Origin: Methanococcoides orientis
GTDB taxonomy: Archaea; Halobacteriota; Methanosarcinia; Methanosarcinales; Methanosarcinaceae
NCBI RefSeq assembly: GCF_021184045.1
Contig: NZ_CP073710.1
Coordinates: 970,685 to 1,002,684, forward strand
Length of the DNA: 32,000 nucleotides
Reading direction: 5' to 3'
Position numbers and translations under genes: made by a program. A model generated the notes under the pieces. The model made no database searches, had not been told where the DNA came from, and saw only the letters and a program-made list of their open reading frames with translations. Below, one piece after another: positions 1 through 17,053 of this stretch (position 1 is the first letter of the stretch; each line of letters begins with the position of its first letter).

Positions 1-1248
1 TCGGGAAATGGAGGATTTTCTTTCCTTTTAACTGAAGACACCATGTACCCCAGATTGCGCATAAAGCAACTCAAGGGGAAGACCTACAACGTAGAGTTCA
101 CTAAAGCACGAAGAAAATCCGTAAAAAAAGGTAACTTCAAGGGTCACTTTTTAGATGTACAGCACCTGGCTTGCATACTTACCGATAGTAAGTCGTTGTC
201 ACTTGAGAGTGCTTGTGAAATGTTTGACACGCAGATAAAGAAAAAAGCAGAAAAAGAACATGGCAAAGTAACACCAAGGTACATAGAATACAACATTAAA
301 GATGTGAAAGCAACCTACGAGGTATTCCAAAAAGTACGGGAAGAGTTCAATAAATATCAGCTGAACATCCCGATGACAAAGGTGTACTCAGCCGCCTCTC
401 TGGGTAAGCAGGCGTTGAGACAATGCAGTCTTAAATCATTTTCAGAACAAAACCCTAAATTTCCCAGAAAAATCATAGGTAATATCATGGGTGCATACTA
501 TGGGGGCAGATGTGAAGTAAAGGTACGCAAAACCCCGGTCAAAGTAACAGTACTTGACTTCTTTAGTATGTATCCTACTGTGATGCTTCTCCTGGGTCAC
601 TGGGAGTTTCTCATTGCAGCAAAAATGCGATACAAAACTGATACCAAAGCAGTACAGGAATTCATTGATAACTTAACATTGGAAAAAGCTTTAGACAAAG
701 ATTCCTGGAAGCAAATGAATGTACTTGTTGAATTGCAACCAGATGATGATATCTTTCCAGTACGAACCAATTATGCTAATCAAGATACACGCAATATAGG
801 GATAAATCATATCACATACAAAGATTCACTTTATTATTTCCTGCCAGACGTACTTGCTTCAAAGCTTCTCGCAGGAAAATCACCACGAATCAAGAAAGCA
901 ATCCGATTTATTCCGGAAGGTGTTCAGAAAGGCCTGACTGAAACACAGATTTATGGCATTAAGATAGATCCGAAAAAGGATAATCTCATCAAATGCTTGG
1001 TGGAACACAGACAGGAAATAAAAAATGAAATGAGAGAAGTTGCAATAGATTCACATGATTACGAGATATTAGACTCCCAGCAAAGAGCAGTAAAAATTGT
1101 TAATAACTCAACGTCATATGGGATTTACCTAGAAGTAAACCCAAAAGAGGATGTTGAAGAATTAGAAATATTTAGCAACGCCAATTTCGATTCAATTGGT
1201 AAATATGAGCCACCTGGAGTTTTTTTTCCACCCCATAATCGGTGCTAA
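1..1248 (+). pseudogene. Family B DNA polymerase (protein-primed-like), N-terminal/middle fragment; 5' end lies outside the window; frame lost in T8 run at 1220-1227
   Basis: Frame 1 is open from nt 1 (SGNGGFSFLLTEDT precedes the listed Met at 43). Exo III-like motif YNIKDVKATY. Motif A-like VLDFFSMYPTVM (~nt 551-590). Motif B-like KIVNNSTSYGIY (~nt 1093-1128). The ORF ends 20 nt after the T8 homopolymer. Confidence 0.85.
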
Positions 1249-2515
1249 TATAACTGCAGGGTCTCGCCTTCTGCTTGCAATTGCTGAAAGATTTGTTCTG
1301 GAAAAAGGAGAGCTTCACACATACATGGACACGGATTCAATCTTTGTTCCTCCGCATCTTGCAGAGGAATTGAGTCATCTGTTCGATTCCTTAAATCCCT
1401 ACGACTTTGATAAACCCATCCTTGAGATTGAAGACGGGATGGATGATATCTGGTTCTATGGAATCAGTTCAAAGAGGTACTGCTTGTTCCATAAGGATGG
1501 GAAAGAGATCGTCATTCCTGGTGGAAAGAAGCTGTTCTATAAACTGCATGGTTTAGGACATATCACAAATCCTTTCAGCAGAGAACTTTGCGAAAAAGAT
1601 CATTGGCACAAACAGATTTGGTTGGATATACTCAAAGTCTATTACAATCCCGAACTTTTGAGTGGAATATTGGAGAAATACGAGAACTATTCAGTAATAT
1701 CGAACCTTTCAATCACCACAGCAAACCTCCACCGCAGATTTGAAAAACTGAACGATGGAAAATCTTTTGACAAACAGATAAAGCCATTTAACTTTATGCT
1801 TGTAGGGCAGGGGACTGTATCAAATAAAAAAGGTAGATCAGCTGTGCAGATAAAACCTATTACACCATTCAGCAAAAATCCTCAAGAAATCGTTGAATTG
1901 CCTTTTATCGACTATAAAACAGGAGATATTCTCCAAGGGAGACATTACTGGAAACCGCTCAGCGATGTTTTTGATAAATATATAAGTCACCCTGAAACCA
2001 AATTCGAGGGCGACATTGGTGTGCTCAAAAGAAGGCATCTGAATCCCAAAGGATGCATATACGTTGGTAAGGAATCCAACAACATAGATATGCAATGTCT
2101 TGAACAGTCGCAACTAGAAACATTCTATGACCTGGAATCACTGCAGGAGTATATACTTAATTTAACTCCCTCAAAGGCTAAAGAAATAGGGGTTAGCAAG
2201 AGTACTCTATTTAGTATGAAAATGAGAATAAAATCCCAAAAACTAAATCTCAATACATCAGCGGTGAAGAAACTTCTGGAGCATTTCTACAATGAAACAG
2301 AGAGCGTCTGTCCAGAGAAAAGACTACTTCAATCAGGTTACGATATGAATGATGTGATTAACTATGTTCGCAATCTAACTCCGAAAGAGGCAAAATCAAT
2401 TGGGATAAAGTACAGGAGTACACTCCAAAATCTAAAGAAAAGGGCTGAGCAGGGACAATTAAACCTTAACACATCAATAATGGATAAAGTTGTCACGCAT
2501 CTTCTGAATTGTTGA
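1196..2515 (+). pseudogene. Family B DNA polymerase, C-terminal fragment (palm motif C, KxY, thumb) plus two C-terminal HTH-like repeats
   Basis: The frame-2 ORF continues the polymerase directly after the T run with HPIIGANITAGSRLLLA. Motif C is YMDTDSIFV and the KxY motif is SSKRYCLF. Removing one T from 1220-1227 joins both ORFs as ...PPGVFFHPIIGANITAG... The listed Met at 1196 is probably not a real start. Confidence 0.85.
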
Positions 2516-2822
2516 AAACTCATGCGAGTGGGTTTACAACAAAAAGGTGCTATCTCATTTTTCGTATGGGATGGACCTGTATACTTAATTTTTAAATTAT
2601 TTTATTAGCCTGATCCTTTTTTATGTTGATAGTTAGTTTAATATATTAAACGATACTTACTTTAATATACAGATTAGTTATTACTTTTCGGCTATAGATA
2701 AGATGGCCATGGAATTTAAATGAAAATTCATGAAAAGTAATGTATGAGAAACCTGAAATTCAAAAGAAGGTACGTCAATGTTCACAGATAAAATAGCACA
2801 CAGTAATTATGTGGTGATCTGA

Positions 2823-2963
2823 ATGCGTTCTAAAGTAACTACGCAGATAGACGCTGACATTAAGTTGCTCTTTGATTCCACAAAAAAAGTACATGGGAAA
2901 TCTTACAGTGAAGTGCTTGAAAATGGAATACAAGAAATGTTGCGTGAGATCAAACCCATATAG
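2823..2963 (+). CDS. Small ribbon-helix-helix (CopG/Arc-like) protein, 46 aa (not in ORF track, below its length cutoff)
   Basis: My own translation is MRSKVTTQIDADIKLLFDSTKKVHGKSYSEVLENGIQEMLREIKPI. It shows a short N-terminal beta-strand pattern (KVTTQID) followed by two amphipathic helices split by a Gly-containing turn. The stop at 2961-2963 lies 3 nt before the ATG of the next ORF. Fold assignment is by pattern only. Confidence 0.45.
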   Translation: MRSKVTTQIDADIKLLFDSTKKVHGKSYSEVLENGIQEMLREIKPI

Positions 2964-2966
2964 ATA

Positions 2967-3287
2967 ATGAAAACCGAAATATCATATCTTAAAAGTTTAA
3001 TCGGTTTAGAAGAAGATAAAAATCAATATTTAAAGGGAACTAAACTGCAAAAGAATGATGATTCAGATATAATAGATCGGATAGGACAATTGAAACAGCA
3101 GATAGAACATGAATTGGAAACAATGCGCTTCCGTCTGTTTAATCTTACAAAAGACTTGATGTTAAGTATTGTAAAGGATGATTCAACAGACTGGTATTTT
3201 TATGCTCGCATTTACTCCTTTGATTCAGGGAATAAGGCAAAAGAGTGGGTTGTTGATAAGCTGAAATCTGAAGGTATGCTTCAATAA
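2967..3287 (+). CDS. Hypothetical protein, 106 aa, no family recognised (coiled-coil-like N-half, aromatic-rich C-half)
   Basis: ORF tightly coupled to the upstream RHH-like ORF. It is convergent with cas3, whose stop lies 11 nt away. No motif I can name. Confidence 0.55.
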   Translation: MKTEISYLKSLIGLEEDKNQYLKGTKLQKNDDSDIIDRIGQLKQQIEHELETMRFRLFNLTKDLMLSIVKDDSTDWYFYARIYSFDSGNKAKEWVVDKLKSEGMLQ

Positions 3288-3298
3288 AGATAGTATTT

Positions 3299-5953
3299 TT
3301 AAATAATAACTCCAATCATTGGGTTTTTTATTTCTTCTTTCAATTTTTCTAATCGTAAGCCATCTGTAAATGAATAATATTGTAAAAACTTTGGAGTTGA
3401 TAAAATAATATCAAATTTTTCATCTTTCTCTATTAGCCCTTCAGTCATAAGATATCCCAATATATCTTGACCATGAGCTTTATTTTTTATATTGATTATT
3501 GAAATAATGAATTGGTTGAGGAGACTAGTAATTTTTCTTCTGAGATATATATCTTTAAACTTATCAGTTGATGTTATGATTTCTTTCCAGACTTTGTATA
3601 CATTCTCAGTTACTACTTTCCCATTGCATATGATTTTATATTTTTTTTCTAACTTCTGAATTTCTGAATCACTTATAATAGACTCAATGTTATATCTGTC
3701 ATATTCTGACAGAAACTCTAGTGGAATGTCCTCACATACAAAAATATCTATTTTATCTAATTTATCATCAATTACATTCAGCTCATTGTTTATCGTTTGA
3801 TAATGTAGATCATTTATTTCACGATTTATTTTTTCAAATGAATCCTTTGCTATTTTTTTTAATTCATCTGATAAAATATGATAGTATTCATCGAATCTTT
3901 TGCAGATTAATATTTCTTTCATGTCGTTTTGGCTAATTTTTCTGGGGCTCAATATTTTGTATCGTTCTTGATCGGAATATATCTTCTTAGAATCTGCAAC
4001 TTTGCCATCTTTGTATTTTATGACGAAGAGTTTTGAAATACTTGCTTTCTTTTCATTACATTCTCTATTTATTCGTCCAGATATCTGTTCGATGCTATCT
4101 ATTATAGAGTAATCTCTAATACCAAAGTCGCAATCAATATCAACGCCTGCTTCTATAGATTGAGTCGAAACGATTATTATTCGTTCTTCTCTAGATTTAT
4201 TCTTTAGTTCCTCGATTAGTTTCTTTCTTCGCAAATTCGAGATGGTGCTATTCAACAAACAAAAAGAAAAATCATTAAACATTATATCAGAGGTCAGTTC
4301 TTCATATACTTTTCTTGAAGTATCAACCACATTTAAAGTTACAAGAACTTTTACGCTCCCTGTTTGGTAATTTGTGTTAATTTCTTCGATTAACAATTGT
4401 TTAATGCCCTCCATATCATTAATATCTAGTCTAAAATGAATTTCATTTCTTTTAAACAATTGATGGTTGTAATATTTTTGGGGATTACTGATTACTTGTG
4501 GAATTGCAGCATCATCTAAAAAAGAATTCAAATTCGGAAGTGTTGCACTCATAACAATGTAATATATATTAAAATTTTTACTTGTTTCACTGATAAAATT
4601 ATAAAAAACTCTTATATTTTTATCACTTAAGGTTTGTATCTCATCAATAATAACTATACTGTTGCATAAGTTAGCTATTTTATAACGATTGGTGCCACCA
4701 GTTTTTATGAAACAGTTGAAAAAGTTTACATTTGTAATTACATTTACACAATTATTTAAAAAATTATCATCCCGAATTATCATCATCTGCTTTAATTTAG
4801 AAATTGAATCTTCATCACCCATATCACGATATTTATCGACATATGCTCGCGAGTATATGTCTGAAACAAGACCTACTTTGTGAGGGAAGAACGAGTTTTC
4901 GAATAATGCATCATTTATAGCTTTGTAGTTCTGTTCTATAATATTGATGTAAGGAAATACATAAAACAAGCGCTTAACATTTTGATCATAGTCGAGAATA
5001 TTTAACGCCATTTTCATAGAAATATTTGTCTTCCCACCACCTGTAGGAATTGCCAACATAAATATTTTATTTCCTTCTTTTAGAAGTTTATTTGTACTTT
5101 TGTTGCATTCAATTAATATTTCTCTTCGCAGTTCATTTATATCATTGCAACAAGAATAATTTTTAAATTCGATTTGATCAATATCTGAGTTGTATGGTAT
5201 CTTTGAATAAGATTTGATCATTTTTTCTCGGATGTCTTGGTTTATAGTGTTTAAGGAGTACATCTCGTTCAATGAGTATGTGTAATGTAACGTTGAATAA
5301 GAATCGCTGAGAACAAGCAATGAATAAAGGAGCTTTACCAAAAGGAAGATTTTACTCCACTCAAAATTGCTCTTGAAAAATTCTCTTTTATTATCTTCGA
5401 GGAGTACTAACTCTCCAACATCTACTAAATGAAGAATTTTTTGAATAAGTTCTTTTTCTTCACGTGATGTGTCATCATCTTTAACGTGAAAATTAGTTAA
5501 ACTACTATGATGGGACCTAATAATATTAGCAAGTAAGTAGATAATCCCATGAGAATTTGGAAATTTTTTTAGTAAAAAAGAAGTTAATATTTTTTCTGAA
5601 AAAAGACTGTGATAGCTATTTCCTGATATCTTATTTCCTTTTACTTTCGCTATTTGGAAATTTGGATTTAGTTTTCCAACATCATGATAATATATTCCAT
5701 AAAGTATAATCTGCTTGATTTTATTTTGTTGTTTTTCTCCAAAAAGGTCGGAAATTAATTCGTCAAGTATAGGCTCAAGTTCCAATTTATCGATTATATG
5801 TAAAAAATATTTACCACATAATTCCAAATGATCTTCCAGGAATTCCAGATTATCTCCTTGTCTGTGAGCAGAATAAAATTGGTTGCATGGAACTAAGCTC
5901 TTATCCAAGATTATGAATAATTCATTGAAAGTATCAGAAGACATAGTAGACAT
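3299..5953 (-). CDS. cas3: CRISPR-associated helicase/nuclease Cas3 (HD domain fused to SF2 helicase)
   Basis: HD motifs YYHDVGKLNPNFQ and SHHS. Helicase motif I PTGGGKT, motif II IIDEIQ, motif III MSATLP, motif VI QISGRINR. Last gene of the cas6-cas8b-cas7-cas5-cas3 string. Confidence 0.93.
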   Translation of the reverse strand: MSTMSSDTFNELFIILDKSLVPCNQFYSAHRQGDNLEFLEDHLELCGKYFLHIIDKLELEPILDELISDLFGEKQQNKIKQIILYGIYYHDVGKLNPNFQIAKVKGNKISGNSYHSLFSEKILTSFLLKKFPNSHGIIYLLANIIRSHHSSLTNFHVKDDDTSREEKELIQKILHLVDVGELVLLEDNKREFFKSNFEWSKIFLLVKLLYSLLVLSDSYSTLHYTYSLNEMYSLNTINQDIREKMIKSYSKIPYNSDIDQIEFKNYSCCNDINELRREILIECNKSTNKLLKEGNKIFMLAIPTGGGKTNISMKMALNILDYDQNVKRLFYVFPYINIIEQNYKAINDALFENSFFPHKVGLVSDIYSRAYVDKYRDMGDEDSISKLKQMMIIRDDNFLNNCVNVITNVNFFNCFIKTGGTNRYKIANLCNSIVIIDEIQTLSDKNIRVFYNFISETSKNFNIYYIVMSATLPNLNSFLDDAAIPQVISNPQKYYNHQLFKRNEIHFRLDINDMEGIKQLLIEEINTNYQTGSVKVLVTLNVVDTSRKVYEELTSDIMFNDFSFCLLNSTISNLRRKKLIEELKNKSREERIIIVSTQSIEAGVDIDCDFGIRDYSIIDSIEQISGRINRECNEKKASISKLFVIKYKDGKVADSKKIYSDQERYKILSPRKISQNDMKEILICKRFDEYYHILSDELKKIAKDSFEKINREINDLHYQTINNELNVIDDKLDKIDIFVCEDIPLEFLSEYDRYNIESIISDSEIQKLEKKYKIICNGKVVTENVYKVWKEIITSTDKFKDIYLRRKITSLLNQFIISIINIKNKAHGQDILGYLMTEGLIEKDEKFDIILSTPKFLQYYSFTDGLRLEKLKEEIKNPMIGVII

Positions 5954-6698
5954 TACCTTCCGACATAATGAAATTCTCTGGATTCTTCAATTGTACCTTG
6001 CATTCTTTTTGTGGTATTGCCATTAGGTTATAAGTATACTTGAAATTATCATCAAAATCTACTGGAAGCATTTCAAGTTTTATATTGCCATTACCTTCTT
6101 TTTCTAGCTCATAGAAGGGGAAGATACTAGAGCACACCGTTTCTTTTCTAGAATTTATCTCATAATCTTTTAATGAAATATATTGAATATTCGCAAAAAA
6201 TTCATTTTTACCGAGATATATGTGAAAAACACTACGGTTATTCTGAATATTTTTAATTATTACTTTATGCAGTTCATTACTTTCGTCCAGCAGTAAGCCA
6301 ATTTCGTAATCTGGGTATAAAATCACCTGTTCATTTATAATTACGTTTGGAGAATCGGTGTCTTTTCTATTGTTCAGGAAACTGTTCAAGCTGTTATAAT
6401 TCACCGTAAATTTTCTATCAGAAATATTGTTAGACTTAATGAAAACTTTCAAATCACCAATTTTAGAATAAAATTCAGGTTCAATGGTCCTGTTTTTATA
6501 TCCTCCAAGACCAGCAATTGAACCAATAAGTCCCAGTAACTGAGGTTTTGGAATGATGGAATACGTGTTCCTGAAGCGATTGCTTATGGGTTGATTAAAA
6601 TGAGCAAAATTTCCATACAATCTAAAAGTCAGGAGTTTATTTGATTTATTGCCAATCTTATATTCTCCTGATGAAGAGTATTCCAGCTTTTGAGTCAT
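5934..6698 (-). CDS. cas5: CRISPR-associated protein Cas5, type I-B
   Basis: N-terminal Cas5 signature LTFRLYGNFAHFNQP...PKPQLLGLIGSIAGLGG. The ORF track starts at a GTG at 6722. I prefer the ATG at 6698 (MTQKLEY), which is preceded by AGGTG. It overlaps the cas3 start by 20 nt. Confidence 0.88.
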   Translation of the reverse strand: MTQKLEYSSSGEYKIGNKSNKLLTFRLYGNFAHFNQPISNRFRNTYSIIPKPQLLGLIGSIAGLGGYKNRTIEPEFYSKIGDLKVFIKSNNISDRKFTVNYNSLNSFLNNRKDTDSPNVIINEQVILYPDYEIGLLLDESNELHKVIIKNIQNNRSVFHIYLGKNEFFANIQYISLKDYEINSRKETVCSSIFPFYELEKEGNGNIKLEMLPVDFDDNFKYTYNLMAIPQKECKVQLKNPENFIMSEGNVYYVF

Positions 6699-6718
6699 GT
6701 AAGCACCTGATAAATTAG

Positions 6719-7603
6719 TCACTTCTCACTCGATTCCAGGGAATAAATATTTTTGACTTTATTGCTGTATTGCTCAAGTGAATCGTCAATGATTTCCTCT
6801 TTTATAATATCTATAACCTTTGAGTAATCTACAATCATTTCACCCTCTGATTCATAGACATCTACCAATGAGTTTAGGTTGTTGAAAATCCGATCATTTT
6901 TGTTCTTAAACCAAAGCGTGCTTACCGTTTCACAGCCAAACATGGTGGTGGAAGTTATTTCTCCCACTGCATATTTCAATGCATTTTTAAGTTTTTTGAT
7001 ATCATCATCCGACACTTTAATTCCTTGTTTCTCTGCAGAATTCATGTTAAGGCAGATGTCATATACGTAGTAAACGTCGTCTGCTCTGGCTTCATTTCCT
7101 ATTGTTGTCTTCTGAGCATCCTGGCTTTTCTCATTTGGATTTCTATAAGGGGACAATATATCGGAAGAATATATATTGGATCCATCTAACCTGTTCACAC
7201 CATAATTGATCTGACAAGGGCCTGTCATAGAAATATTACGTGTATCATCGCCACTGATTGCAAATACAACTCCAAACAATCGAACATCTATGAAACCTTT
7301 GAGGTCGCTAATAATCTCACTTTCATCTTTAGGCAGGGCACCTTTGTCACATTTTTTGAAATAATTCTCTTTTAATGTAAGGTATCGTTCTACCACTTCA
7401 TCCTCATTGCTTTTTTTATGAAACTCCTTGGTTCTCTGAACGAACACAGGTTCTTTTTTTGAAAGATACTCTCTTAAGCAATACTTCAACGCTTTATCAG
7501 TAGCAAATATCCTCCCGCTAGGCAGCCTTCTAGGGAGACCATCAAAACCTGCATTGAAACTCGCATTCTTTGCGTTTACAACAACCAAACCATTGTAGTT
7601 CAT
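6719..7603 (-). CDS. cas7: CRISPR-associated protein Cas7 (type I-B backbone subunit, Csh2-like)
   Basis: 294 aa, located between cas8b and cas5. The N-terminus VVNAKNASFNAGFDGLPRR...ATDKALKYCLR resembles the Cas7 RAMP N-terminal region. Its start directly abuts the cas8b stop. Confidence 0.8.
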   Translation of the reverse strand: MNYNGLVVVNAKNASFNAGFDGLPRRLPSGRIFATDKALKYCLREYLSKKEPVFVQRTKEFHKKSNEDEVVERYLTLKENYFKKCDKGALPKDESEIISDLKGFIDVRLFGVVFAISGDDTRNISMTGPCQINYGVNRLDGSNIYSSDILSPYRNPNEKSQDAQKTTIGNEARADDVYYVYDICLNMNSAEKQGIKVSDDDIKKLKNALKYAVGEITSTTMFGCETVSTLWFKNKNDRIFNNLNSLVDVYESEGEMIVDYSKVIDIIKEEIIDDSLEQYSNKVKNIYSLESSEK

Positions 7604-9505
7604 TTAATTATCCTCCTGTTGTGTAGATTCACGTTCTTCTTTTTCTTTTGTGGAAGAATAGAGATAGTTATCATCAAAGTAGCCTGTGTACAGAGAAATC
7701 TTGTTGTCCTCATATGACTTTTTGAATTCGAATGCTAGGACATTTTTAGTCAGATTGTGAAATCTCCGATTATTGTCAAGATATTCGTTATGAGAATACT
7801 TTTCAAGTACTGAAATTAACTTCTTTTTTAGCATGTCCATATTATGAACATTCATAGTATATTTTGTGAAGAGGTTTAACTTGTTCTTTCCTTTGTATTC
7901 CTGAACTAAGTAGTAAAATGCTTGTCCCATGCAGTAACTCGCTTCGAAATCATTCTCTATTTCAAAAGAGTCATTATCTTTCATTTTTTCTTTTAAAGCC
8001 ATGTATTCTGTAATGGTTTCGCCCCCGTTAGGTTCTATGTTTAGATACTTGTAGTAGATTGTAAGGAAGAAGCGGATTTTGTTAGGTCCGATCTTCATGT
8101 CATCACGAAGACCTGAATTTGTGATTAACTCAGAAAGCATTTCTCTGAATAGCTTTGAATAAATACAATCCTCAAAAAGGGAAACATCTTGAAAATACAA
8201 AAAGTTCCTAATAATTGAGTTGTATTCTATAATTTTCAGTTTAAGGAAAGGATGAAGTGTATCTCTCAACTTTTTCGGATTCTTTTCAAACAAGGACCCT
8301 ATAAGATTATTGTTAAAAATCAAGTTTAATTCTCTCAAAAATATTGATTTATCCCTTTCATTTTGAATGTATCTGATTGCTCCCTTCTTATTTTTATCAG
8401 GAAGCTCCTTTAAAGTTGAGTGTATCGAGATATCTTTAATATTAATAGTTGGTTTTATATTTTGAAGGTAGTAATTGAAATTATTAACATATGTGAATTC
8501 TATATCCTCAAGTTTCGGATTGGCAATCATCATCACATAATCAAATTCCTGAGATCGATTCCTGTCGTACAAAGATTTTAACATTTTTAAGATTCCAATA
8601 GGATCAGAAGAATAATCTCTGTAATCACTTGTCTCAACTGTTACAGTTGTGGGAAACACGTATCTGTAAAACTTGTATTTCTTGATGTATTCAAAATAAT
8701 CATAAATTTGTTTGGAACATTTTTCACATAAATTGAAATTTTCCGAACTTTTTGATTTCAAGTTAGACTTAAATCTTGTAGGATGCCTAAGAAGAAATTT
8801 CCTGTCTTTGGCCAGATCAAATATATTTCCAAAAGTCAACATATAAAGCTGACCCAATTCTCCACAGCTATCACAGTTTCCTTCAAATGTATTATATTTC
8901 AGAATTTTTTGCAGGGTATACTCTTCGATAGTAGCAATATAACTATCAATATCAGATTCATTTACAAGGAAAACGATTAAGTCATTTTCCCGTAGACCAA
9001 AAGTATTTTCAGGGTTTCTTGTATCAAAATTTCTAAAAAAACTCTCAACTCTATCACAGAGATTTGGGAATTGATTATAATACTCAGTTTTCTTGACTGA
9101 ATCTCTAAAAGAATCAACTTTTTTAGAAGGGATTTTTATAACCACATTTCCGTTTGGATGCTGTCGATTTATATTATCTTCATTTTTATCGAAGAAAACA
9201 TTAGTAAGTTTATAATGAGTGGGTGAATGACTTAAAAGTGCAGAATTGCTTCCAATATTGTTACTTCCTTTACGAGTGGGTCGCACAAACTTACTAGTAA
9301 AATATACAAGAGGATATTTTTCTAACAGTAAGATATCGTTTACCTCTTCTTCAATATCTGATCCACTAATAACAAATGGTGAGTCGCTTAAATTCGGAGG
9401 TACAATCAAAATTTTGGTCGTTTCATTTTTGGGTTCGGATTCATCTTCATTCAATAAAGCGTTATAGTCTTCTTCAGTAAACAAATTTACAATAAAATTG
9501 TACAT
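7604..9505 (-). CDS. cas8b: CRISPR-associated large subunit Cas8b, type I-B
   Basis: ~633 aa ORF in the canonical large-subunit position between cas6 and cas7. Cys4 cluster CDSC...CEKC. I prefer the ATG at 9505 (MYNFIVN), preceded by GGAGG, over the listed start at 9529. No separate cas11 gene is present. Confidence 0.78.
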   Translation of the reverse strand: MYNFIVNLFTEEDYNALLNEDESEPKNETTKILIVPPNLSDSPFVISGSDIEEEVNDILLLEKYPLVYFTSKFVRPTRKGSNNIGSNSALLSHSPTHYKLTNVFFDKNEDNINRQHPNGNVVIKIPSKKVDSFRDSVKKTEYYNQFPNLCDRVESFFRNFDTRNPENTFGLRENDLIVFLVNESDIDSYIATIEEYTLQKILKYNTFEGNCDSCGELGQLYMLTFGNIFDLAKDRKFLLRHPTRFKSNLKSKSSENFNLCEKCSKQIYDYFEYIKKYKFYRYVFPTTVTVETSDYRDYSSDPIGILKMLKSLYDRNRSQEFDYVMMIANPKLEDIEFTYVNNFNYYLQNIKPTINIKDISIHSTLKELPDKNKKGAIRYIQNERDKSIFLRELNLIFNNNLIGSLFEKNPKKLRDTLHPFLKLKIIEYNSIIRNFLYFQDVSLFEDCIYSKLFREMLSELITNSGLRDDMKIGPNKIRFFLTIYYKYLNIEPNGGETITEYMALKEKMKDNDSFEIENDFEASYCMGQAFYYLVQEYKGKNKLNLFTKYTMNVHNMDMLKKKLISVLEKYSHNEYLDNNRRFHNLTKNVLAFEFKKSYEDNKISLYTGYFDDNYLYSSTKEKEERESTQQEDN

Positions 9506-9617
9506 ATTTCCTCCAAATCTACAACACACTATACCATTTCACTCTTCAAAACACTCTTGTGTATCATGACACCGTATCCTATGTACGCTTAAACATTTAC
9601 CAAGTAAGAGGAAATAT

Positions 9618-10340
9618 TCACACAACCTCCAAACATCCAAACCCCATGGCATTCTTCTCCCCTAACCCTGCATCATATGCAAACCTTACAATCTCAGGAC
9701 TAGCCTCAAGTTCCAGAGTCATCAAACTACATCTCCTGAAACTATTGCCTATCGAAACGCGTTTTGGCTTGAAGTTCTTCACTTCCAGCACTTCAAAATG
9801 ATCATGCTCAACCTTGTGACCGTAGTATTCCTCGTACCTTGACGTAAGGTTCGTATGGACATTTTCATAAAACTTCGAGTCCTTTGGATACAAATCAATT
9901 TCAACAAGTTTTCCGTCCTTCTTCCTCATCGTTTTTGCATATACAGGAGAGAGGGTTGTAAACTTGCAGGACTCAGACATCTCCAGCTGAGGTATTATTT
10001 CTATACGCTCAATTATGAAATTTGCTTTTTTGACTCTTCCAAGGAAGAACTCTGGCTCGAGAAGCAAACCTTCCGTGAAGCTGCGAATGAACTCCGAGTC
10101 TGGTGAGGATATGAAAAAGTGTGCTTTATTGAAATCCAAACCATGTTTGTTCGGAATCCTATCCTCGATTATGAGATTCGAAAATGTATAGAACTTGAAA
10201 CCCTGGTGACTATGTGTCTTGTCTGCTAAAGTGATATTTGCACTGGCAAGCCGTGCGTAGAGCATTGATGCTAAACCATACTGATAATCGTAATGAATAT
10301 GATTGTTCGTTGTTTTTTGTATGGTTACCTTGCATCGCAT
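9618..10340 (-). CDS. cas6: CRISPR repeat endoribonuclease Cas6
   Basis: 240 aa. The C-terminal glycine-rich loop GLGEKNAMGFGCLEVV is typical of Cas6. It is the first gene downstream of the array trailer on the minus strand. Confidence 0.9.
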   Translation of the reverse strand: MRCKVTIQKTTNNHIHYDYQYGLASMLYARLASANITLADKTHSHQGFKFYTFSNLIIEDRIPNKHGLDFNKAHFFISSPDSEFIRSFTEGLLLEPEFFLGRVKKANFIIERIEIIPQLEMSESCKFTTLSPVYAKTMRKKDGKLVEIDLYPKDSKFYENVHTNLTSRYEEYYGHKVEHDHFEVLEVKNFKPKRVSIGNSFRRCSLMTLELEASPEIVRFAYDAGLGEKNAMGFGCLEVV

Positions 10341-10443
10341 GGTATATGAAACAACTTAATATAATTTATATGTTTTGAAAATATTCGAGCGAAATCATCT
10401 CATAAATATAATCTGTTTTTACCAATTATATTGAGATTATGTT

Positions 10444-10473
10444 TGTTCAATCCCCGTAATGTTTGAGTATGAC
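10444..10473 (-). repeat. Strongly decayed extra CRISPR repeat beyond the trailer end (19/30 identities)
   Basis: TGTTCAATCCCCGTAATGTTTGAGTATGAC aligns to the repeat consensus and retains the TTCAATCCC core. It lies 37 bp (one spacer length) from the degenerate repeat at 10511. Confidence 0.5.
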
Positions 10474-10510
10474 ATTATACTTAAAGGTATTATATGTAAT
10501 CTATATAGGT

Positions 10511-12334
10511 ATACTTGTCCCTCTTTGGTCTGATTTTAACGCTTGACGAAACTCTCCTGAACGCTTTCACCTATCTTGATTTCAATCCCACAATGATCTG
10601 ATTTTAACGCACCGCCCTTATGGACACGTAATAAAGCTAACAAATTTCAATCCCACAATGGTCTGATTTTAACCAGTAATATTAATGTCATGCCCTCGCT
10701 TGCAACATGTTTTATTTCAATCCCACAATGGTCTGATTTTAACTGAATACACTCCAAGAACGAGATTAATATCAATTGAATTTCAATCCCACAATGGTCT
10801 GATTTTAACTCGTTTCCAACTTGCAGACGGAACAAATCTTGACCAAATTTCAATCCCACAATGGTCTGATTTTAACTATTCTTGTCTTCCTCGCTTCCCT
10901 CTTCACTTCCGCATTTCAATCCCACAATGGTCTGATTTTAACGAACAAAAGCACGTTTTGTAGATTGGTAGATAAGGCATTTCAATCCCACAATGGTCTG
11001 ATTTTAACATTTTATTGATAGTTAACATTAATTCGTTTCCTCCATTTCAATCCCACAATGGTCTGATTTTAACACCAAACGCAAAAACGACAGATGGAGT
11101 TTCAGCAGAATTTCAATCCCACAATGGTCTGATTTTAACATTATAGCCCCCCACAACTGCCGCGCTGGTTACTGCATTTCAATCCCACAATGGTCTGATT
11201 TTAACCCTGTACAAAACTGTACAAAGTTAGTATGAAACTTAATTTCAATCCCACAATGGTCTGATTTTAACCCGAATCTCAATATTAGGTGTAAGCTCGT
11301 TATCATATTTCAATCCCACAATGGTCTGATTTTAACAAAGATAAAGCCGATTCTATGAACGCTTTTAGAAATATTTCAATCCCACAATGGTCTGATTTTA
11401 ACTATTAATTTTGATTTCACAGCAAATGTTCATTATACATTTCAATCCCACAATGGTCTGATTTTAACACGAATCGATAAACATCCTCAGTTGAAATATC
11501 ATATCATTTCAATCCCACAATGGTCTGATTTTAACCTTTGATCCTGATGATACCCTGAAAACCTTTACATTAATTTCAATCCCACAATGGTCTGATTTTA
11601 ACGAGGAATTAATTCCTCTTAAATATTACATTCATCAATATTTCAATCCCACAATGGTCTGATTTTAACCCAAAACGGATCTTCCGGTTCAAATCTATCA
11701 ACTATATTTCAATCCCACAATGGTCTGATTTTAACAAAAATCCTTGTTTCTCATTAATATTTGATACAATATTTCAATCCCACAATGGTCTGATTTTAAC
11801 CGTCTTTAATGAAGTCACCCTGCTTGTTCTTGGCAGATTTCAATCCCACAATGGTCTGATTTTAACTCAAATGCCGAAGCTGTCCCGGTGCAAATTAACA
11901 ATATTTCAATCCCACAATGGTCTGATTTTAACCATTGCGGCAGTGACGAATAAACCGTTCTATTTCAAATTTCAATCCCACAATGGTCTGATTTTAACAA
12001 AATTGTCACCAACCACAGAAACCTGCTGAATGGTATTTCAATCCCACAATGGTCTGATTTTAACGTTCATGTTTGCCGTACGATCCGGCAGGATACTTCA
12101 TTTCAATCCCACAATGGTCTGATTTTAACGATGTCAGTGATTGTCGTCTGTGGTTCCTCGACTACTGATTTCAATCCCACAATGGTCTGATTTTAACATT
12201 AATATTTGTTGGTTTGGGCGGGAATGTATTGCATACAGATTTCAATCCCACAATGGTCTGATTTTAACGGGCTAATTATATCGCTATTGAAGAAACTATA
12301 TTATATTTCAATCCCACAATGGTCTGATTTTAAC
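10511..12334 (-). CRISPR. CRISPR array, 28 x 30-nt repeats, 27 unique spacers of 35-41 bp (modal 36); transcribed on the minus strand
   Basis: The repeat on the plus strand is ATTTCAATCCCACAATGGTCTGATTTTAAC, which reads GTTAAAATCAGACCATTGTGGGATTGAAAT in transcript sense. I located every repeat by hand. Starts are 10511(deg), 10579(1 mismatch), 10644, 10714, 10780, 10847, 10913, 10979, 11044, 11110, 11176, 11242, 11307, 11373, 11439, 11506, 11573, 11640, 11706, 11771, 11837, 11903, 11969, 12035, 12100, 12168, 12239 and 12305. Repeat decay at the low-coordinate end and the ATTGAAAT 3' end set the orientation. Confidence 0.97.
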
Positions 12335-12526
12335 CAAGCTCATTTGGCCATATTTTACCCAACAAATTTGATCTATTGAAAAGCATCTATGCATTTATAG
12401 ATGGCTTTTTTCACAACTAAAGTTCTATTTTCTATTATAAAAAAACGTTCATCGGAAGCAAAAATTAAAACTTGTTTTCGGGGATTCCTTATTTTGCGTC
12501 TCCTATATAAGCATCCACGAAAAGGA
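12335..12526 (-). promoter_or_regulatory. CRISPR leader (AT-rich, between the cas2 stop and the first perfect repeat)
   Basis: 192-bp AT-rich non-coding stretch abutting the perfect-repeat end of the array. On the minus strand it has TATA-like elements (TTATATAGG, complement of 12503-12512; TTTTTTTATAATAG). A 7-bp inverted repeat CATCTAT-N6-ATAGATG lies at 12384-12403. Confidence 0.6.
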
Positions 12527-12790
12527 TTAAATGATTGAGTCTATTTCAGCTGGTCTGGACCCTAATTCATCTAACATGAGATACTTTTTATCTCTGACAT
12601 GGTAGATGAAAACACTATCTTCCTCTTCATTGATTATCTTCTTTAATTGGGACTATACTCTCAGATACTCGGCTTTTGTGAGTTCTCCTTCAAGTACACT
12701 ATTTTGCACCCAGTTGAGATATTGTTTTAAGAAAACACGCACTTTGTTTAAGCGTTCTACGCCAACATCATAGACAACAATCACATACAT
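12527..12790 (-). pseudogene. cas2: CRISPR-associated endoribonuclease Cas2 with in-frame TAG at codon 46 (12653-12655); pseudogene or amber read-through/pyrrolysine candidate
   Basis: My translation is [86 protein letters not shown]. It shows canonical Cas2 hallmarks (VVVYDV, WVQNSV.EGE, DSV.IY) on both sides of the TAG, in the same frame. The start lies 1 nt after the cas1 stop. It is absent from the ORF track because each half is under 60 aa. Confidence 0.88.
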
Positions 12791-12791
12791 C

Positions 12792-13793
12792 TTACCACCA
12801 CATCACAAGTGGTTTGTATGCTTCATCATCAAGTACGTGTTTTGATAGCTTGTAAAGCTCCAGCCGAATCAGTCGTTTATATGAAACATTTCGCTTCAAA
12901 CCTTTATGTTTGATAGTAGTAGACAACTTAGCATTATATTCTTGCAAAAAGACTTTTTTACCTTTTTCACTCAATAGCATATCCCCGATCTCCCCCATGA
13001 AGCAACTATCATCTAGCATATTCTTGTTTACAAGTTTGAGTATGATTCTATCTATTATGATAGGTTTGAAAATCTCACTTACATCAAGAGCAAGAGAAAA
13101 ACGACGTTCAAAGGGTTCGTGAAGGTATGATATAGTTGGATTTAATTGGGTGTTATAGATCTCAGAGAGCACTGTAGTGTACATCAAAGAATTGCCGAAA
13201 CTTATGAGTGTATTCATTTTATTACTTGGGGGGCGTCTGGTCCTTGTTATAATCCGATAATCCTCAGGAAATATTTCATCCAATGCACTATAGTATATGT
13301 TTCGTATGCGTCCCTCGACATTCATCATACTCGATATCGAGTCTGCATTAGGTAGGCGAGTAAACTCCGATTCTATTGAATTTATATGTTCATCCAGACT
13401 ATCCTGAAGACCATCTTTGCTCCTTGAGTAGTACCTCAAATTTTTGAGAATATTACCACAGGCTCCCTCGATGAATTTCCCTGCCAAAAACATTCTTTTT
13501 TCAGTATCGAGGTAATGAGATGCTTGTTTAATGACGAGATCTCCACTGATTAGCGTCTCTCGCGGGTACATACTGCCTTCGTAGAAACCATAATAATTAA
13601 AAAAGTGTATGGGGATGCCATTCTTTGCAAGGTATGAGACTACTCCTGATGATAAAGACAATCTGCCGTATGCATAAATCGAATATATCTTATTTATAGG
13701 TAAGACCCGCTTTTCATCCTTGTTCACAAAATAGACCGTGTTTTCTTTTCGCTTTAAGGTACCATCCTGCAAGATGTAATAATCTGTTCGCAT
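12792..13793 (-). CDS. cas1: CRISPR-associated integrase Cas1
   Basis: 333 aa. Catalytic-region motifs [17 protein letters not shown] and [11 protein letters not shown]. The C-terminal KPLVMWW is typical of I-B-type Cas1. It is flanked by cas4 and cas2. Confidence 0.95.
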
Positions 13794-13835
13794 TCAAATT
13801 CCCCCATAATCAAATCTTGTAGCTAAAAAGTTATC

Positions 13836-14405
13836 TTAATCGTCATCGACTTCACCACAAAAACAGAACTCAAAATACGCACATTTCGAACAGATACGTA
13901 GGCGTTTAGGATGTGGCATCCTTCCTGTAACGATTTCTTCAATGTGTTCAATATCATTTTCTATTTTCTTTTCATCATCTTCTGTCAGTACAATTTCCTT
14001 GGTCTGGTTCAGCAGAGGGTAGTTCATAACACCCTGAGCATCAATTCCCCTCTGCTTAAGATAATAAATGTAGTAGAGCATTTGGCGTAAATGGGCATCT
14101 TCCATTTTTTTAGTTTTTTTGATATCGTGCAATTCTATGATGTCATTTCGCTTTTTCACAAAATCAATACTTATCGTATTGTCGATAGTAATATCTTTTT
14201 TATTTTTGCTATAGCGATCTTCATGGAGTAATTTTCCGATATTGACATTCTCGTCCTCACGTTCAAGAACAATGTTGTGGGAAAAAAGCCAGAGCTTGGT
14301 ATGACAGATGTGGTAATAGTTAATCTTGACACCTGTTATTTTTACGTAGGGTGTTAATGCAGTTGGTATGTCTTTAGATGTTGACAGACAATTTGAACCC
14401 ATCAA
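13836..14405 (-). CDS. cas4: CRISPR-associated exonuclease Cas4 (RecB-like, Fe-S)
   Basis: 189 aa. An N-terminal Cys (YHICHTKLW) plus the C-terminal CSKCAYFEFC cluster give the 4-Cys Fe-S pattern. QxxxY motif within LRQMLYYIYYL. Located upstream of cas1. Confidence 0.88.
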   Translation of the reverse strand: MMGSNCLSTSKDIPTALTPYVKITGVKINYYHICHTKLWLFSHNIVLEREDENVNIGKLLHEDRYSKNKKDITIDNTISIDFVKKRNDIIELHDIKKTKKMEDAHLRQMLYYIYYLKQRGIDAQGVMNYPLLNQTKEIVLTEDDEKKIENDIEHIEEIVTGRMPHPKRLRICSKCAYFEFCFCGEVDDD

Positions 14406-14650
14406 TATATAATTATATAAAACAATATTTAAATTATTTGCAAAGTTTTACCTAAAGATAGTACTGTTTGGATTAAATACGTATGGTCAAATATCTTAAA
14501 GAAGTAGAATCATTAACATTCTGATTTTTTTAGAGAATTTTATATATTATTGTATTTTTTAAAAAATATATTTAAAAAAAACAACTTCATAAAAATTTAA
14601 CGTACAAAAAAGTCCAATTTTTTTATTTCTTATATATCCCAAAAGAAAAG

Positions 14651-14735
14651 TGCGGGGGGAGGGATTCGAACCCTCGAAATCCTTCGATACCAGATCTTAA
14701 GTCTGGCGCCTTTGACCTAGCTGGGCGACCCCCGC
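14651..14735 (-). tRNA. tRNA-Leu (anticodon UAA), class II with long variable arm
   Basis: The reverse complement is GCGGGGGTCGCCCAGCTAGGTCAAAGGCGCCAGACTTAAGATCTGGTATCGAAGGATTTCGAGGGTTCGAATCCCTCCCCCCGCA. It folds by hand into a cloverleaf. The acceptor is GCGGGGG/CCCCCGC and the anticodon stem is CCAGA/TCTGG with loop CTTAAGA. The variable arm is TCGAA-GGA-TTCGA and the T arm is GAGGG-TTCGAAT-CCCTC. No CCA is encoded. Confidence 0.93.
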
Positions 14736-14816
14736 ATGAGAATTAGAACGGCTGCCTTATGCTCTTGGTCACCCCATAATTAAAGTTAAGTTACTTAAGC
14801 CTTATTCTAATGAAGC

Positions 14817-15563
14817 ATGAAGATAACATTTCTTGGAACAGGTGTGGCGATACCACAGAAAGACAGGGTTCAATCAGGACTACTTATGGAGATCAGTGAG
14901 AAGAAAGTCCTTTTCGACTGTGGAGGAGGTGTGCTGAACCGGATATTCGAGAGCGGGAACTTGCATACGGACATCGATACCATTGTGCTTTCACATCTGC
15001 ACCTGGACCATGTGGCTGATGTTATGTGCCTTCTCAAGGCAAACTGGCTGTGTGATAAGTTCGATTCCACCATTTATGGTCCGGCAGGTACGCGGGAGTG
15101 GCTTAACAGGGTCATGGACATCTATCCATACATGAAGGAAAAGGTCAGCGTCGATGTCGTGGAGGTTGCGCCGGGCGAGGAGTTCAAGCTCTTCGATGGA
15201 TGCGATGTGAAATGTGCCAGCGGGATACACAGTGTGCCATCACTAGCGTATCAGGTACGGCATGATGGGCAGACAGTAGTCTACTCAGGGGATACCGAGC
15301 CGTGTGAAGACATCATGGAACTGGCGCAGGGCTGTGATATGCTTATCCACGAGTGCTCTTTCCCGCTGAACTTTGAGATGACGAATCACACCACACCTGA
15401 CATGCTGAGACCTTACCTTAAAGATACAGGCATCAGGGGAGTTTATCTTACACACCTTTATCCCCACATGCAAGGGCATGAAGAAGAAGCTCTTGAATAC
15501 CTGAAAAAAGAGTTTGAGGGGGAGGTTCACATACCCTTCGACCTCATGGTTGTTGAGATCTGA
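14817..15563 (+). CDS. MBL-fold metallo-hydrolase (RNase Z/beta-lactamase superfamily)
   Basis: HxHxDH motif SHLHLDHVAD, N-terminal ITFLGTG, 248 aa. Confidence 0.8.
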   Translation: MKITFLGTGVAIPQKDRVQSGLLMEISEKKVLFDCGGGVLNRIFESGNLHTDIDTIVLSHLHLDHVADVMCLLKANWLCDKFDSTIYGPAGTREWLNRVMDIYPYMKEKVSVDVVEVAPGEEFKLFDGCDVKCASGIHSVPSLAYQVRHDGQTVVYSGDTEPCEDIMELAQGCDMLIHECSFPLNFEMTNHTTPDMLRPYLKDTGIRGVYLTHLYPHMQGHEEEALEYLKKEFEGEVHIPFDLMVVEI

Positions 15564-15617
15564 TCGACTCCGATCGGGAGGCGATCGATCTATTAAAGCT
15601 GGTCGAACCTATTGAGC

Positions 15618-16250
15618 TCAGTCCTCAAGGAAGACCACGCTTACATTATCTTCATCCAGCTCGATCAAAGCAGCATATCCCTGTGCTGCCATGCCGGGAT
15701 TTACAAGGAAAGTATCGCCTGATCTGGCGAATCCTCTTGCTTCATGGATATGCGCACAGATCACGAGCTTTGCACGGTTAAAGAACTTAGCCACGGCTGT
15801 GCTTCCCACATTCTCGCCTCCGACTTCATCCAGCAAGCCCCTGGGAGGAGTGTGGGAGAGGAGCACGACAGTGCCTTCAGCAGCTTCGAAAAGTGGCTCA
15901 AGGGTCTTTTCGATCTCATCCTCCTCAAGCTCGAAGGGTGTATTGAACGGGGTTGGGCAGGAACCTCCCATTCCTATGAACGTAAAGTCATCTATCTTCT
16001 TCACAGCATTATGCAGGTTTACCGCATCCGATGAATCGATCGCGTCCATGACATCCTTCGGGTCACAGTTTCCGGGAACTGCAAGGACAGGTACATCGAA
16101 CATCGAAAGCAATTTCTCAGCTCCACTGCCAGGACCGAACTGGGTCAGATCGCCGCTTATCACTGCCAGATCGACATCACCTGCTTTCTCCAGCAGGCCA
16201 TCGATATGGGAAGGATCACCATGTACATCCGCAAGGGCAAGTATTCTCAT
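15618..16250 (-). CDS. Metallophosphoesterase (calcineurin-like, YfcE/MJ0936-type)
   Basis: Motifs LALADVHGD, ISGDL, VPGNCD, SHTPP and CAHIHE. 210 aa. Confidence 0.85.
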   Translation of the reverse strand: MRILALADVHGDPSHIDGLLEKAGDVDLAVISGDLTQFGPGSGAEKLLSMFDVPVLAVPGNCDPKDVMDAIDSSDAVNLHNAVKKIDDFTFIGMGGSCPTPFNTPFELEEDEIEKTLEPLFEAAEGTVVLLSHTPPRGLLDEVGGENVGSTAVAKFFNRAKLVICAHIHEARGFARSGDTFLVNPGMAAQGYAALIELDEDNVSVVFLED

Positions 16251-16273
16251 TTTTCACACCTCGAAAAAGAACG

Positions 16274-17053
16274 TTAGAATTTCCTGTCACCACCGAGGAT
16301 GCCACCGAGTGCCGTTTCACCAATTCCCGATATGCCGCCTCGCTCTCCCCTGTTGGATTCCCCTGGACCGATGGCCGCAGCGATCCTGTCAGCAAGACGG
16401 GAGAACGGCAGGCTCTGGAGATACACTTTACCCGGTCCCTTGACCGTTGCCAGTACCATACCTTCGCCTCCGAAAAGTGCATTTTTGAAACCGCCTACGA
16501 ACTGGATGTCGTAATCAATACTCTCAGAAAATGCCACCAGGCATCCTGTGTCAACCCTAAGGGTCTCTCCCGGTGCAAGCTCCTTTTTCACAATTGTACC
16601 GCCTGCATGGACGAATGCAAGGCCGTCACCGTGAAGCCTCTGGAGAATGAAACCTTCCCCACCGAAAAGACCGGCCCCTATCCTCTTGGAAAAAGCGATC
16701 GTAATGTCGATACCATCAGCAGCACAAAGGAATGAGTCCTTCTGACAGAGGAAGCTACCACCCTCCTCTGTGAGGTCTATAGGCACGATCTTACCAGGAT
16801 ACGGAGCACCGAAAGCAACACTGCCCTTTCCATTGCCGGTCTGGGTGAATGAAGTGATAAAGAAGCTCTCACCGGAGAATGCTCTTTTAAGTCCTTTCAG
16901 GAGCCCGCCGCCTGTAGAGGTTTCCATCTTAATGCCATCCCCCATGAACATCATGGCTCCGGCCTCTGCCCTTACTGTTTCTCCTTTATCAAGGCCGATC
17001 TCCACCAGCTGCATCTCATTACCATGAATCTTATAATCGATCTCATCTGCCAT
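16274..17053 (-). CDS. TIGR00266/AIM24 (DUF124) family protein
   Basis: MADEIDYKIHGNEMQLVEIGLDKGETVRAEAGAMMFM... with a Gly-rich repetitive beta pattern typical of this family. I chose the ATG at 17053 because it is preceded by GAGGAG. The 68-codon upstream extension in the ORF track lies in AT-rich non-coding-looking sequence. Confidence 0.6.
   Translation of the reverse strand: MADEIDYKIHGNEMQLVEIGLDKGETVRAEAGAMMFMGDGIKMETSTGGGLLKGLKRAFSGESFFITSFTQTGNGKGSVAFGAPYPGKIVPIDLTEEGGSFLCQKDSFLCAADGIDITIAFSKRIGAGLFGGEGFILQRLHGDGLAFVHAGGTIVKKELAPGETLRVDTGCLVAFSESIDYDIQFVGGFKNALFGGEGMVLATVKGPGKVYLQSLPFSRLADRIAAAIGPGESNRGERGGISGIGETALGGILGGDRKF

Follow-up and report, generated by a model that had tools for sequence, protein, structure and literature searches.

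Among the casposons described in the literature, those of Methanosarcina mazei come closest to the locus discussed here. They reside at tRNA-Leu genes, where insertion leaves a target-site duplication (TSD) of 14 bp, with an invariant 5′-CGCA over the last 4 bp of the tRNA and an AT-rich 3′ part (PMC4779613, PMC6977970); their ends read 5′-TATATCCC, as in the structure study of the casposase (PMC6977970), and the tLEU2 site used in vivo is CGCACTTATTTTTT (PMC10359463). According to a 2019 review, casposons known at the time do not encode Cas2 (PMC6452270). Here, we consider a 32,000-nt stretch of the genome of Methanococcoides orientis (the window, G000:C1:970685-1002684, G000 being the single-contig genome of 2,494,162 bp studied here), in which an AT-rich block with a complete type I-B CRISPR-Cas system ends at a tRNA-Leu(UAA) gene. 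In all likelihood, this block is a single family-2 casposon, termed E1, inserted at the 3′ end of that tRNA gene. A casposon carrying a whole CRISPR-Cas system between its ends was not found described in the literature searched: no casposon with CRISPR arrays or effector genes came up there, and an earlier catalogue entry, for instance of the sister element in the congener G012 introduced below, may exist.

Several other classes of mobile elements share part of this make-up. Pipolins are bounded by direct repeats and are moved by recombinases, not by a casposase acting on terminal inverted repeats (TIRs). Described as bacterial integrative elements that encode a primer-independent PolB, they resemble the casposons here in being PolB-encoding integrated platforms for exchangeable defence cargo (PMC11551731). 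AciBoo-C1 of Aciduliprofundum boonei is another family-2 casposon that sits at the 3′ end of a tRNA, and its TSD measures 14-15 bp; compared by description, it differs from E1 in its host, its tRNA-Pro target and its TIRs, and it has no CRISPR cargo. Certain archaeal integrated elements (CIE) carry a complete type I-B system with arrays, as E1 does, yet they form a class separate from casposons (PMC6563490); not being casposons, they lack the pairing of an immune system with paralogous Cas1-family integrases. Finally, Tn7-like CRISPR-associated transposons (CASTs) share terminal repeats, cas interference genes and a short array near one end with E1, and the absence of cas1 and cas2 with the G012 element. 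CASTs rely on TnsABC/TniQ and nuclease-dead effectors and are RNA-guided, in contrast to E1 with its HD-helicase Cas3, full adaptation module, casposase and fixed tRNA target. Nothing here suggests guided transposition by E1.

The element and its target site

A first-pass annotation of the window had noted, by eye, a step in base composition at ~14.65 kb, where a tRNA-Leu(UAA) gene turns its 3′ end toward the AT-rich side. Both observations hold. ARAGORN places the tRNA, the only one found in the window, at 14650-14735 on the minus strand, and the computed GC profile steps from ~34% to 45-52% at the 3′ end of this gene. By 1-kb windows, GC is 0.28-0.39 over window positions 1-14500, 0.445 at 14501-15500, 0.51-0.52 at 15001-17000 and then 0.41-0.49 up to 32000, compared with a genome mean of 0.427 and a standard deviation of 0.040 among 2-kb windows. 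The right edge of the block thus falls at the tRNA, as had been proposed, but its start is not in the window: the block continues for 5,192 bp to the left, up to genome position 965493.

Delimited in this way, E1 spans genome positions 965493-985324, i.e. window -5192 to 14640, and measures 19,832 bp. Its right end is formed by TIR-R (14446-14640, unstranded), which ends with ...CTTATATATCCC at 14640. TIR-L, at genome 965493-965685, is an inverted copy of TIR-R that was recovered by BLAST of the tRNA region against the genome (E 5e-63); the arms are 189-195 bp long and 87.7-89.4% identical across alignments, with the outer 55 nt identical between them, and exactly two copies exist genome-wide. 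Both arms start with GGGATATATAAG..., so that their 3′ ends read ...TATATCCC-3′. Directly abutting the two tips are the copies of a 14-bp TSD, which match at 14 of 14 positions. The right copy lies at 14641-14654 (unstranded) and reads AAAAGAAAAGTGCG on the plus strand and CGCACTTTTCTTTT in tRNA orientation; its left counterpart occupies 14794-14807 of locus L001, which includes DNA left of the window. The first 4 nt of the TSD, CGCA, are the last 4 nt of tRNA-Leu, and a T-rich tail comes after them.

A check proposed in the first-pass annotation, namely a search for a repeat of the tRNA 3′ segment further upstream, therefore returned a clear answer 19.8 kb to the left. The 14-bp TSD is part of a longer direct repeat (25 of 25 nt) immediately outside both TIR arms. 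This repeat can be split into the 8 nt TATATCCC, which in the left flank form the end of an older solo-TIR stub, the TSD itself and 3 nt GGG; at the last of these, both the tRNA continuation and the TIR read GGG.

From left to right, E1 comprises TIR-L, a decayed array (array 2), the casposase, three conserved small genes, PolB and a small open reading frame (ORF), followed by cas3-cas5-cas7-cas8b-cas6, the 28-repeat array 1, cas2-cas1-cas4 and TIR-R. Assignment to family 2 refers to a Cas1-family casposase with a C-terminal extension of ~60-70 aa (helix-turn-helix) and an intact catalytic triad. The E1 casposase, located left of the window, is a 400-aa Cas1-family protein (Pfam Cas1, 3e-69) that aligns without gaps over residues 1-397 with the M. 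mazei casposase (PDB 6OPM, E 1.4e-192) and conserves the catalytic residues E162, H232 and E247. It is distinct from the 333-aa CRISPR cas1 product of E1, with which it shares only 27% identity. The link to family-2 casposons that had been suggested from the window alone is hence borne out by casposase, PolB, TIRs, TSD and tRNA target alike.

All of the M. mazei casposon features named at the outset are present in E1, and its TSD matches the M. mazei tLEU2 site at 12 of 14 positions by our own count. M. mazei family-2 casposons (e.g. MetMaz1FA1A3-C2; 6OPM) share with E1 a closely homologous casposase (1e-192), PolB, TATATCCC-3′ tips and a 14-bp CGCA TSD over the last 4 nt of tRNA-Leu; in both cases, insertions in tandem or at hot spots are found as well, along with solo TIRs. 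The differences concern size and cargo. E1 has 19.8 kb vs 10 kb for the casposon MetMaz-C1 (PMC10359463) and 8.7 kb for a related Methanococcoides casposon measured here, its TIRs extend over ~190 bp, whereas a TIR among the shortest known from M. mazei has 31 bp, and, unlike M. mazei casposons, it carries a full type I-B system with cas1, cas2, cas4 and two arrays.

As a single unit bounded by TIRs and TSD, E1 points to one insertion rather than several. Self-BLAST of the element returned the outer TIR pair only, neither an inner pair nor any further long repeat, and in the same comparison no insertion scar, insertion sequence (IS) element or repeat was seen to flank the cas module. A casposon nested inside a CRISPR locus was considered as well and is ruled out by the finding of the outer TIRs alone. 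According to the mechanism that we propose, a casposase tetramer would join the two 3′-OH ends (...TATATCCC-3′) to the two target strands, with an offset of 14 bp between the joining points, where tRNA-Leu(UAA) has its 3′ end, and gap repair would duplicate the 14 bp CGCACTTTTCTTTT and restore the tRNA. PolB is presumed to replicate E1.

Comparison with related genomes, another check that had been put forward, revealed the tRNA-Leu site without the block. In the congener G004, the site reads ...GTTACCTATATCCC, then AAAAGAAAAGTGCG, then tRNA-Leu, with the identical 14-mer present once and no element. This kind of arrangement, in which the tRNA-Leu 3′ end is followed by a 14-mer and a TIR-like stub of ~35 nt without any element, is found in nine congeners including G004, and the stub resembles the TIR of ordinary Methanococcoides casposons. 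More generally, a solo-TIR-like stub of ~35-45 nt (...AGAGTTCGGTTTTTTACACTTACCTATATCCC) stands beside tRNA-Leu in G000 and most congeners (L018-L027). The G000 stub is at L001 14749-14793 (genome 965434-965478), and genomes of the genus contain several stub copies each.

Composition and distribution support a foreign origin of E1. With a GC of 0.344 vs 0.427 for the genome, the whole element falls in the lowest 0.24% of the genome's 20-kb windows. Its Cas8b has a relative in only 1 of 12 congeners, 65% identical and far from any casposase, and the best matches are in other families. To the right of the element, genes for an MBL hydrolase, a phosphoesterase, AIM24 and RimK are conserved in 12 of 12 congeners. 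Over the first 2.5 kb to the right of the tRNA (window 14817-17257), with genes for an MBL-fold hydrolase, a metallophosphoesterase and an AIM24-family protein, GC is high at 0.50-0.52 and exceeds the mean of the genome. Low-GC DNA at genome ~954-965 kb, left of E1, is separate from the element and appears to be older mobile-element debris.

Casposon core and CRISPR-Cas cargo

The core order casposase-orf272 / orf187-orf131-PolB is common to eight related Methanococcoides and Methanolobus casposon loci, and those loci with located ends have 14-bp CGCA-type TSDs. In E1, PolB is split into two overlapping frames on the plus strand. The 5′ frame (1-1248 in the window; Pfam DNA_pol_B_2 and DNA_pol_B) belongs to an ORF of 551 aa that starts upstream of the window at L001 19592, and the 3′ frame (1196-2515, 439 aa) is reached by a +1 shift at a run of eight T (T8) at 1220-1227. 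The split is due to one extra T in this run: tblastn with the PolB of E2, a second casposon of the same genome described below, changes frame exactly there, and the PolB of relatives is a single continuous ORF of 896-973 aa with which E1 PolB is collinear over its full length. The 5′ frame is 63% identical to the single-ORF PolB of E2 and 88% identical to that of the G012 sister element. The extra T may have arisen by recent mutation or sequencing error, or the run may be a slippery site. An internal duplication of about 55 aa is seen where the 3′ frame ends.

The last conserved core gene is a small ORF pair at 2823-3287 on the plus strand, encoding 46 aa and 106 aa, or 154 aa if TAG is read as pyrrolysine. 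The two frames are separated only by TAG-ATA-ATG, and the copy in the G012 sister is 90% identical, with TAG at codon 47 in both. No family match was found for this ORF, which may represent one 154-aa pyrrolysine protein or a coupled gene pair. On the other side of the core, a 520-bp AT-rich non-coding stretch (L001 15640-16157, genome 966325-966842) separates array 2 from the casposase stop. Motifs like CGATATGG / GTATCCGTATAT recur within this stretch, which is 86% conserved in the G012 element.

The cas genes of E1 lie between PolB and the far TIR, TIR-R, all on the minus strand. The gene content listed in the first-pass annotation, from PolB through cas3, cas5, cas7, cas8, cas6 and the array to cas2, cas1 and cas4, was recovered in its entirety. 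The interference part begins with cas3 at 3299-5953, which encodes an HD nuclease and helicase (Pfam Cas3_HD, DEAD and Cas3-like_C_2; NCBIfam cas3_core and cas3_HD). It is followed by a type I-B-like cas5 at 5934-6722, for which the best NCBIfam match, Cas5b TIGR02592 (2.5e-22), scores below the curated cut-off and Pfam Cas_Cas5d is weak, and by cas7 at 6719-7603 (Pfam Cas_Cas7, 2e-30), whose best NCBIfam matches include a Cas7/Csh2 model, again scoring below the curated cut-off. The cas8b-like large subunit (7604-9529) yielded no Pfam or NCBIfam match and was assigned by its position between cas6 and cas7; homologues with 62-75% identity occupy the same position of other I-B loci. The last gene of this group, cas6 (9618-10340), is recognised by Pfam Cas6_I-A and Cas_Cas6_C and by TIGR01877 above cut-off, and it is 72% identical to the cas6 of the G012 sister.

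Array 1 extends over 10511-12334 on the minus strand, with its leader side at the right, and was delineated by a fuzzy repeat scan. It consists of 28 repeats of 30 nt (GTTAAAATCAGACCATTGTGGGATTGAAAT), 26 of which are identical, and 27 spacers of 35-41 nt. Its leader, read from the sequence, occupies 12335-12526 on the same strand. Array 2 lies left of the window between TIR-L and the casposase, on the plus strand, and its 9-10 repeats have diverged. The first of them begins 218 nt from the TIR-L tip, which places TIR-L in the position of a leader.

The adaptation genes complete the cargo. CRISPR-type cas1 (12792-13793, 333 aa; Pfam Cas_Cas1, 2.4e-88) has CRISPR Cas1 proteins as its best structural relatives, with 7ei1 as the best PDB match (4e-104), and cas4 is found at 13836-14405 (Pfam Cas_Cas4, 2.7e-54). 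The 87-codon cas2 (12527-12790) contains an in-frame TAG at 12653-12655 (codon 46), and TIGR01573 scores above cut-off when the TAG is read through. Genome-wide recoding of TAG to pyrrolysine has been inferred in a subset of archaea, with proteomics validation in Methanococcoides burtonii, and Methanococcoides is among the genera with many in-frame-TAG genes (preprint 10.1101/2024.09.30.615893). In view of such recoding, and with the TAG aligning with Arg in three metagenomic Cas2 relatives, cas2 is probably intact.

Taken as a whole, the gene set of a type I-B system is complete, with cas6, cas8b, cas7, cas5, an HD-helicase cas3, cas4-cas1-cas2 and an array, and all genes are open; close homologues lie in canonical I-B loci, and I-B is the probable subtype. 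E1 also holds the genome's only large array, its only CRISPR-type cas1 and its only type I-B CRISPR-Cas locus. Judging from this gene content, E1 would give its host its only adaptive immunity, with the cas genes and array 1 presumably active. On the minus strand, the order is cas4-cas1-cas2, array, cas6-cas8-cas7-cas5-cas3, a circular permutation of the canonical order cas6-8-7-5-3-4-1-2-array that is found in the closest metagenomic relatives (L048-L050; Cas1 86% and Cas3 60% identical).

Related elements and rival explanations

A TIR search revealed an inverted E1-type TIR pair 36.6 kb apart in the complete genome of the congener G012. The sister element between them (G012:C1:1905367-1941969; L060 567 to L061 18369) is flanked by its own TSD (14 of 14 positions, CGCATTTTAAGAAT) beside a tRNA-like fragment. 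This site is not orthologous to that of E1: the corresponding G000 locus is without such an element, and the tRNA-Leu site of G012 itself is unoccupied. The two elements are 86% identical at the nucleotide level over 7,469 bp, from the small-array side through casposase and PolB to the small ORF, and PolB is intact in the G012 element. Also common to both elements are an array next to the casposase, the repeat family and cas6, the last of which lies inverted in the sister relative to E1. The last spacer of E1 array 2, moreover, is shared at 33 of 35 positions with the trailer end of the G012 array.

The remaining cargo of the sister is its own. It includes two P-type ATPases, an ABC1 kinase, the small array, the casposon core and S-layer/DUF11 genes, together with the set cas6-cas8(CXXC)-cas7(DevR)-cas5-cas3 and an array of ~47 repeats of E1's repeat family. 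No cas1, cas2 or cas4 was found in the G012 genome, where the casposase is the only Cas1-family gene. In the G012 arrays, nearly every repeat differs in its central part. The genome G011 retains a remnant in which an E1-type TIR is followed by a single repeat, 211 nt from the tip vs 218 nt in E1. An inner TIR block of ~45 nt is conserved in both arms of E1 and in G011, and partly in the right arm of the G012 element.

Broader searches placed these elements among otherwise ordinary casposons. Among 177 Methanosarcinaceae genomes, orf272 is present at high identity in G000 and G012 only. A casposase scan with one genome per species returned ordinary casposons and no further E1 copy, and a Cas3 scan of metagenomes returned canonical I-B loci without casposon genes. 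Neither cas genes nor arrays lie within 10 kb of 13 other related casposase loci, and no arrays were found in these 13 loci or in E2 by a k-mer chain scan, for which array 2 served as the control and was recovered.

With a sister at a different target sharing the core, cas6, repeats and a spacer, the link between CRISPR and casposon would predate both insertions. The history that we propose starts with a rare Methanococcoides casposon lineage that acquired a type I-B system and kept arrays and cas6 during one transposition or more. The cas cargo would have been remodelled later, by module replacement and inversion in one branch and with adaptation genes lost or absent in the other. For E1 itself, we infer that it integrated with its CRISPR cargo already on board and that it is still able to move; the support for mobility is indirect and comes from the sister at a non-orthologous site with a TSD of its own.

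Several observations weigh against this account. The PolB frameshift at T8 means that E1 may now be immobile, with a sequencing error as the alternative. No spacer target came to light that would speak for CRISPR activity: the spacers gave no self-matches, no matches in relatives' casposons and none in the phage and plasmid collections searched, and three leader-proximal spacers had no exact match in the viral contigs searched. The left flank of E1 is rearranged, since TrmB-like and methyltransferase genes that lie left of the G000 stub are ~119 kb from tRNA-Leu and in opposite orientation in G004, where this DNA adjoins another CGCA-type site. Recombination between casposon ends plausibly caused the rearrangement, and the comparison with the unoccupied site is consequently limited to the ~35-nt stub, the 14-mer and the tRNA side. 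The casposase, Cas3, TIR and orf272 searches yielded no second copy of E1 with its exact cargo. The cas modules of E1 and G012 differ as well: only cas6, the repeats and one spacer are shared, and cas3 is 25% identical, so that the cas cargo was remodelled after the E1/G012 split, possibly in situ. Finally, GC is uneven within E1, with 0.379 in the casposon core, 0.319 in cas3-cas6, 0.366 in cas2-cas1-cas4 and 0.19-0.22 in the TIRs, and the contrast between core (0.38) and interference genes (0.32) points to separate origins.

These last two points also speak for the rival that survives best, although we consider it unlikely: a casposon of ~8 kb arrived first at tRNA-Leu, and CRISPR-Cas was inserted or recombined in place later, without ever having travelled with the casposon. 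It can further draw on the circular permutation of the E1 cas order relative to the canonical order of relatives and on the 13 of 13 other related casposase loci without cas genes or arrays within 10 kb. Yet the G012 sister, at a different target and with its own TSD, already has array, cas6, repeat family and shared spacer, and the same TIR-to-repeat junction recurs in the G011 remnant. In-place capture would also need two separate insertions, one for array 2 and one, across the core from it, for the cas genes, and no IS element, repeat or scar surrounds the cas module.

A second rival regards the inverted repeats as duplicated CRISPR leader or promoter segments, with a casposon core recombined into a chromosomal CRISPR locus. 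The location of TIR-L directly upstream of array 2, that of TIR-R upstream of cas4 and the conservation of the inner ~45-nt block all fit this idea, which is nevertheless highly improbable: the tips, the 14-bp CGCA TSD that they abut and the target are all canonical for casposons, the outer TIR has the TTTTTTGTACG motif common to the TIRs of relatives' ordinary casposons, and the leader of array 1 is unrelated to the TIRs. The TIR as a duplicate of the array 1 leader was rejected, as the similarity between the two does not rise above that of shuffled controls.

Hardly credible, finally, is a classical tRNA island moved by a tyrosine or serine recombinase, with the direct repeat as attL/attR: tRNA 3′ ends are common att sites and a 25-of-25 repeat, 8 nt of which belong to the tRNA 3′ end, does flank the block, but this repeat resolves into the casposon end TATATCCC, the 14-bp TSD and GGG, the long TIRs abutting it are not a feature of integrase islands, and no tyrosine integrase or recombinase lies in E1 or its flanks, so that the missing recombinase and the TIRs contradict it. 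The search for a nearby integrase that the first-pass annotation had recommended thus came back empty, the sole PF00589 match and tyrosine recombinase of the genome being at 1.90 Mb. Of the tRNA-targeted horizontal arrival proposed there for the PolB element and CRISPR-Cas, the insertion stands, as a single unit, and a casposase takes the place of the integrase.

Defence cargo, possible casposase-CRISPR coupling and wider meaning

E1 is not the only casposon of this genome. The second, E2 (G000:C1:1397735-1414613; L015, L016), measures 16.9 kb and has the 14-bp TSD CGCAGAATACTTCG. Its casposase is 68% identical to that of E1, its PolB is intact (896 aa) and its cargo consists of HsdM, HsdS, a SIR2-like protein, HsdR and a RES-domain protein, the Hsd proteins making up a type I restriction-modification system. 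A further TIR and casposase fragments come after E2, marking its site as a tandem hot spot. About ten casposase fragments are scattered elsewhere in the genome, with C-terminal pieces 50-87% identical to the E1 casposase; one C-terminal fragment lies 2 kb left of E1 (L001 12349-12819, genome 963033-963503). The CRISPR-Cas cargo of E1 together with the restriction-modification, SIR2 and RES cargo of E2 suggests Methanococcoides casposons as carriers of defence genes.

A more far-reaching idea is that casposase and CRISPR machinery are functionally coupled in this lineage instead of merely travelling together. The long TIR may also act as leader and promoter for the array near the end of the element, with the other TIR driving cas4-cas1-cas2, and the G012 casposase, positioned between two arrays and cas6-8-7-5-3, may insert or maintain spacers. 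We regard such coupling as unlikely. The casposase-adjacent arrays and all G012 arrays have very heterogeneous repeats, which looks like decay and not like recent acquisition, and E1 has an ordinary cas1-cas2-cas4 set beside the homogeneous array 1. If true, coupling would be a living analogue of the proposed transition from casposon to CRISPR, in which leader and repeat derive from the TIR or target, and the spacer integrase from the transposase.

The CRISPR adaptation module has been proposed to descend from casposons. In E1, a single casposon of the M. mazei type holds a casposase, CRISPR Cas1-Cas2-Cas4, a Cascade/Cas3 effector and two arrays. One mobile unit thus unites transposase and CRISPR integrase, two paralogues with different targets, which makes cross-talk between them experimentally testable, be it of the casposase with repeats or leader or of Cas1-Cas2 with TIRs or the TSD. 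E1 also bears on the idea of the TIR as a leader, given that array 2 has a transposon end as its upstream region. The G012 sister, without adaptation genes and with the casposase as sole Cas1 homologue, offers a natural test bed for the origin scenario. If E1 is the casposon that it very probably is, transposons of just the class from which CRISPR-Cas is thought to descend are able to spread it.

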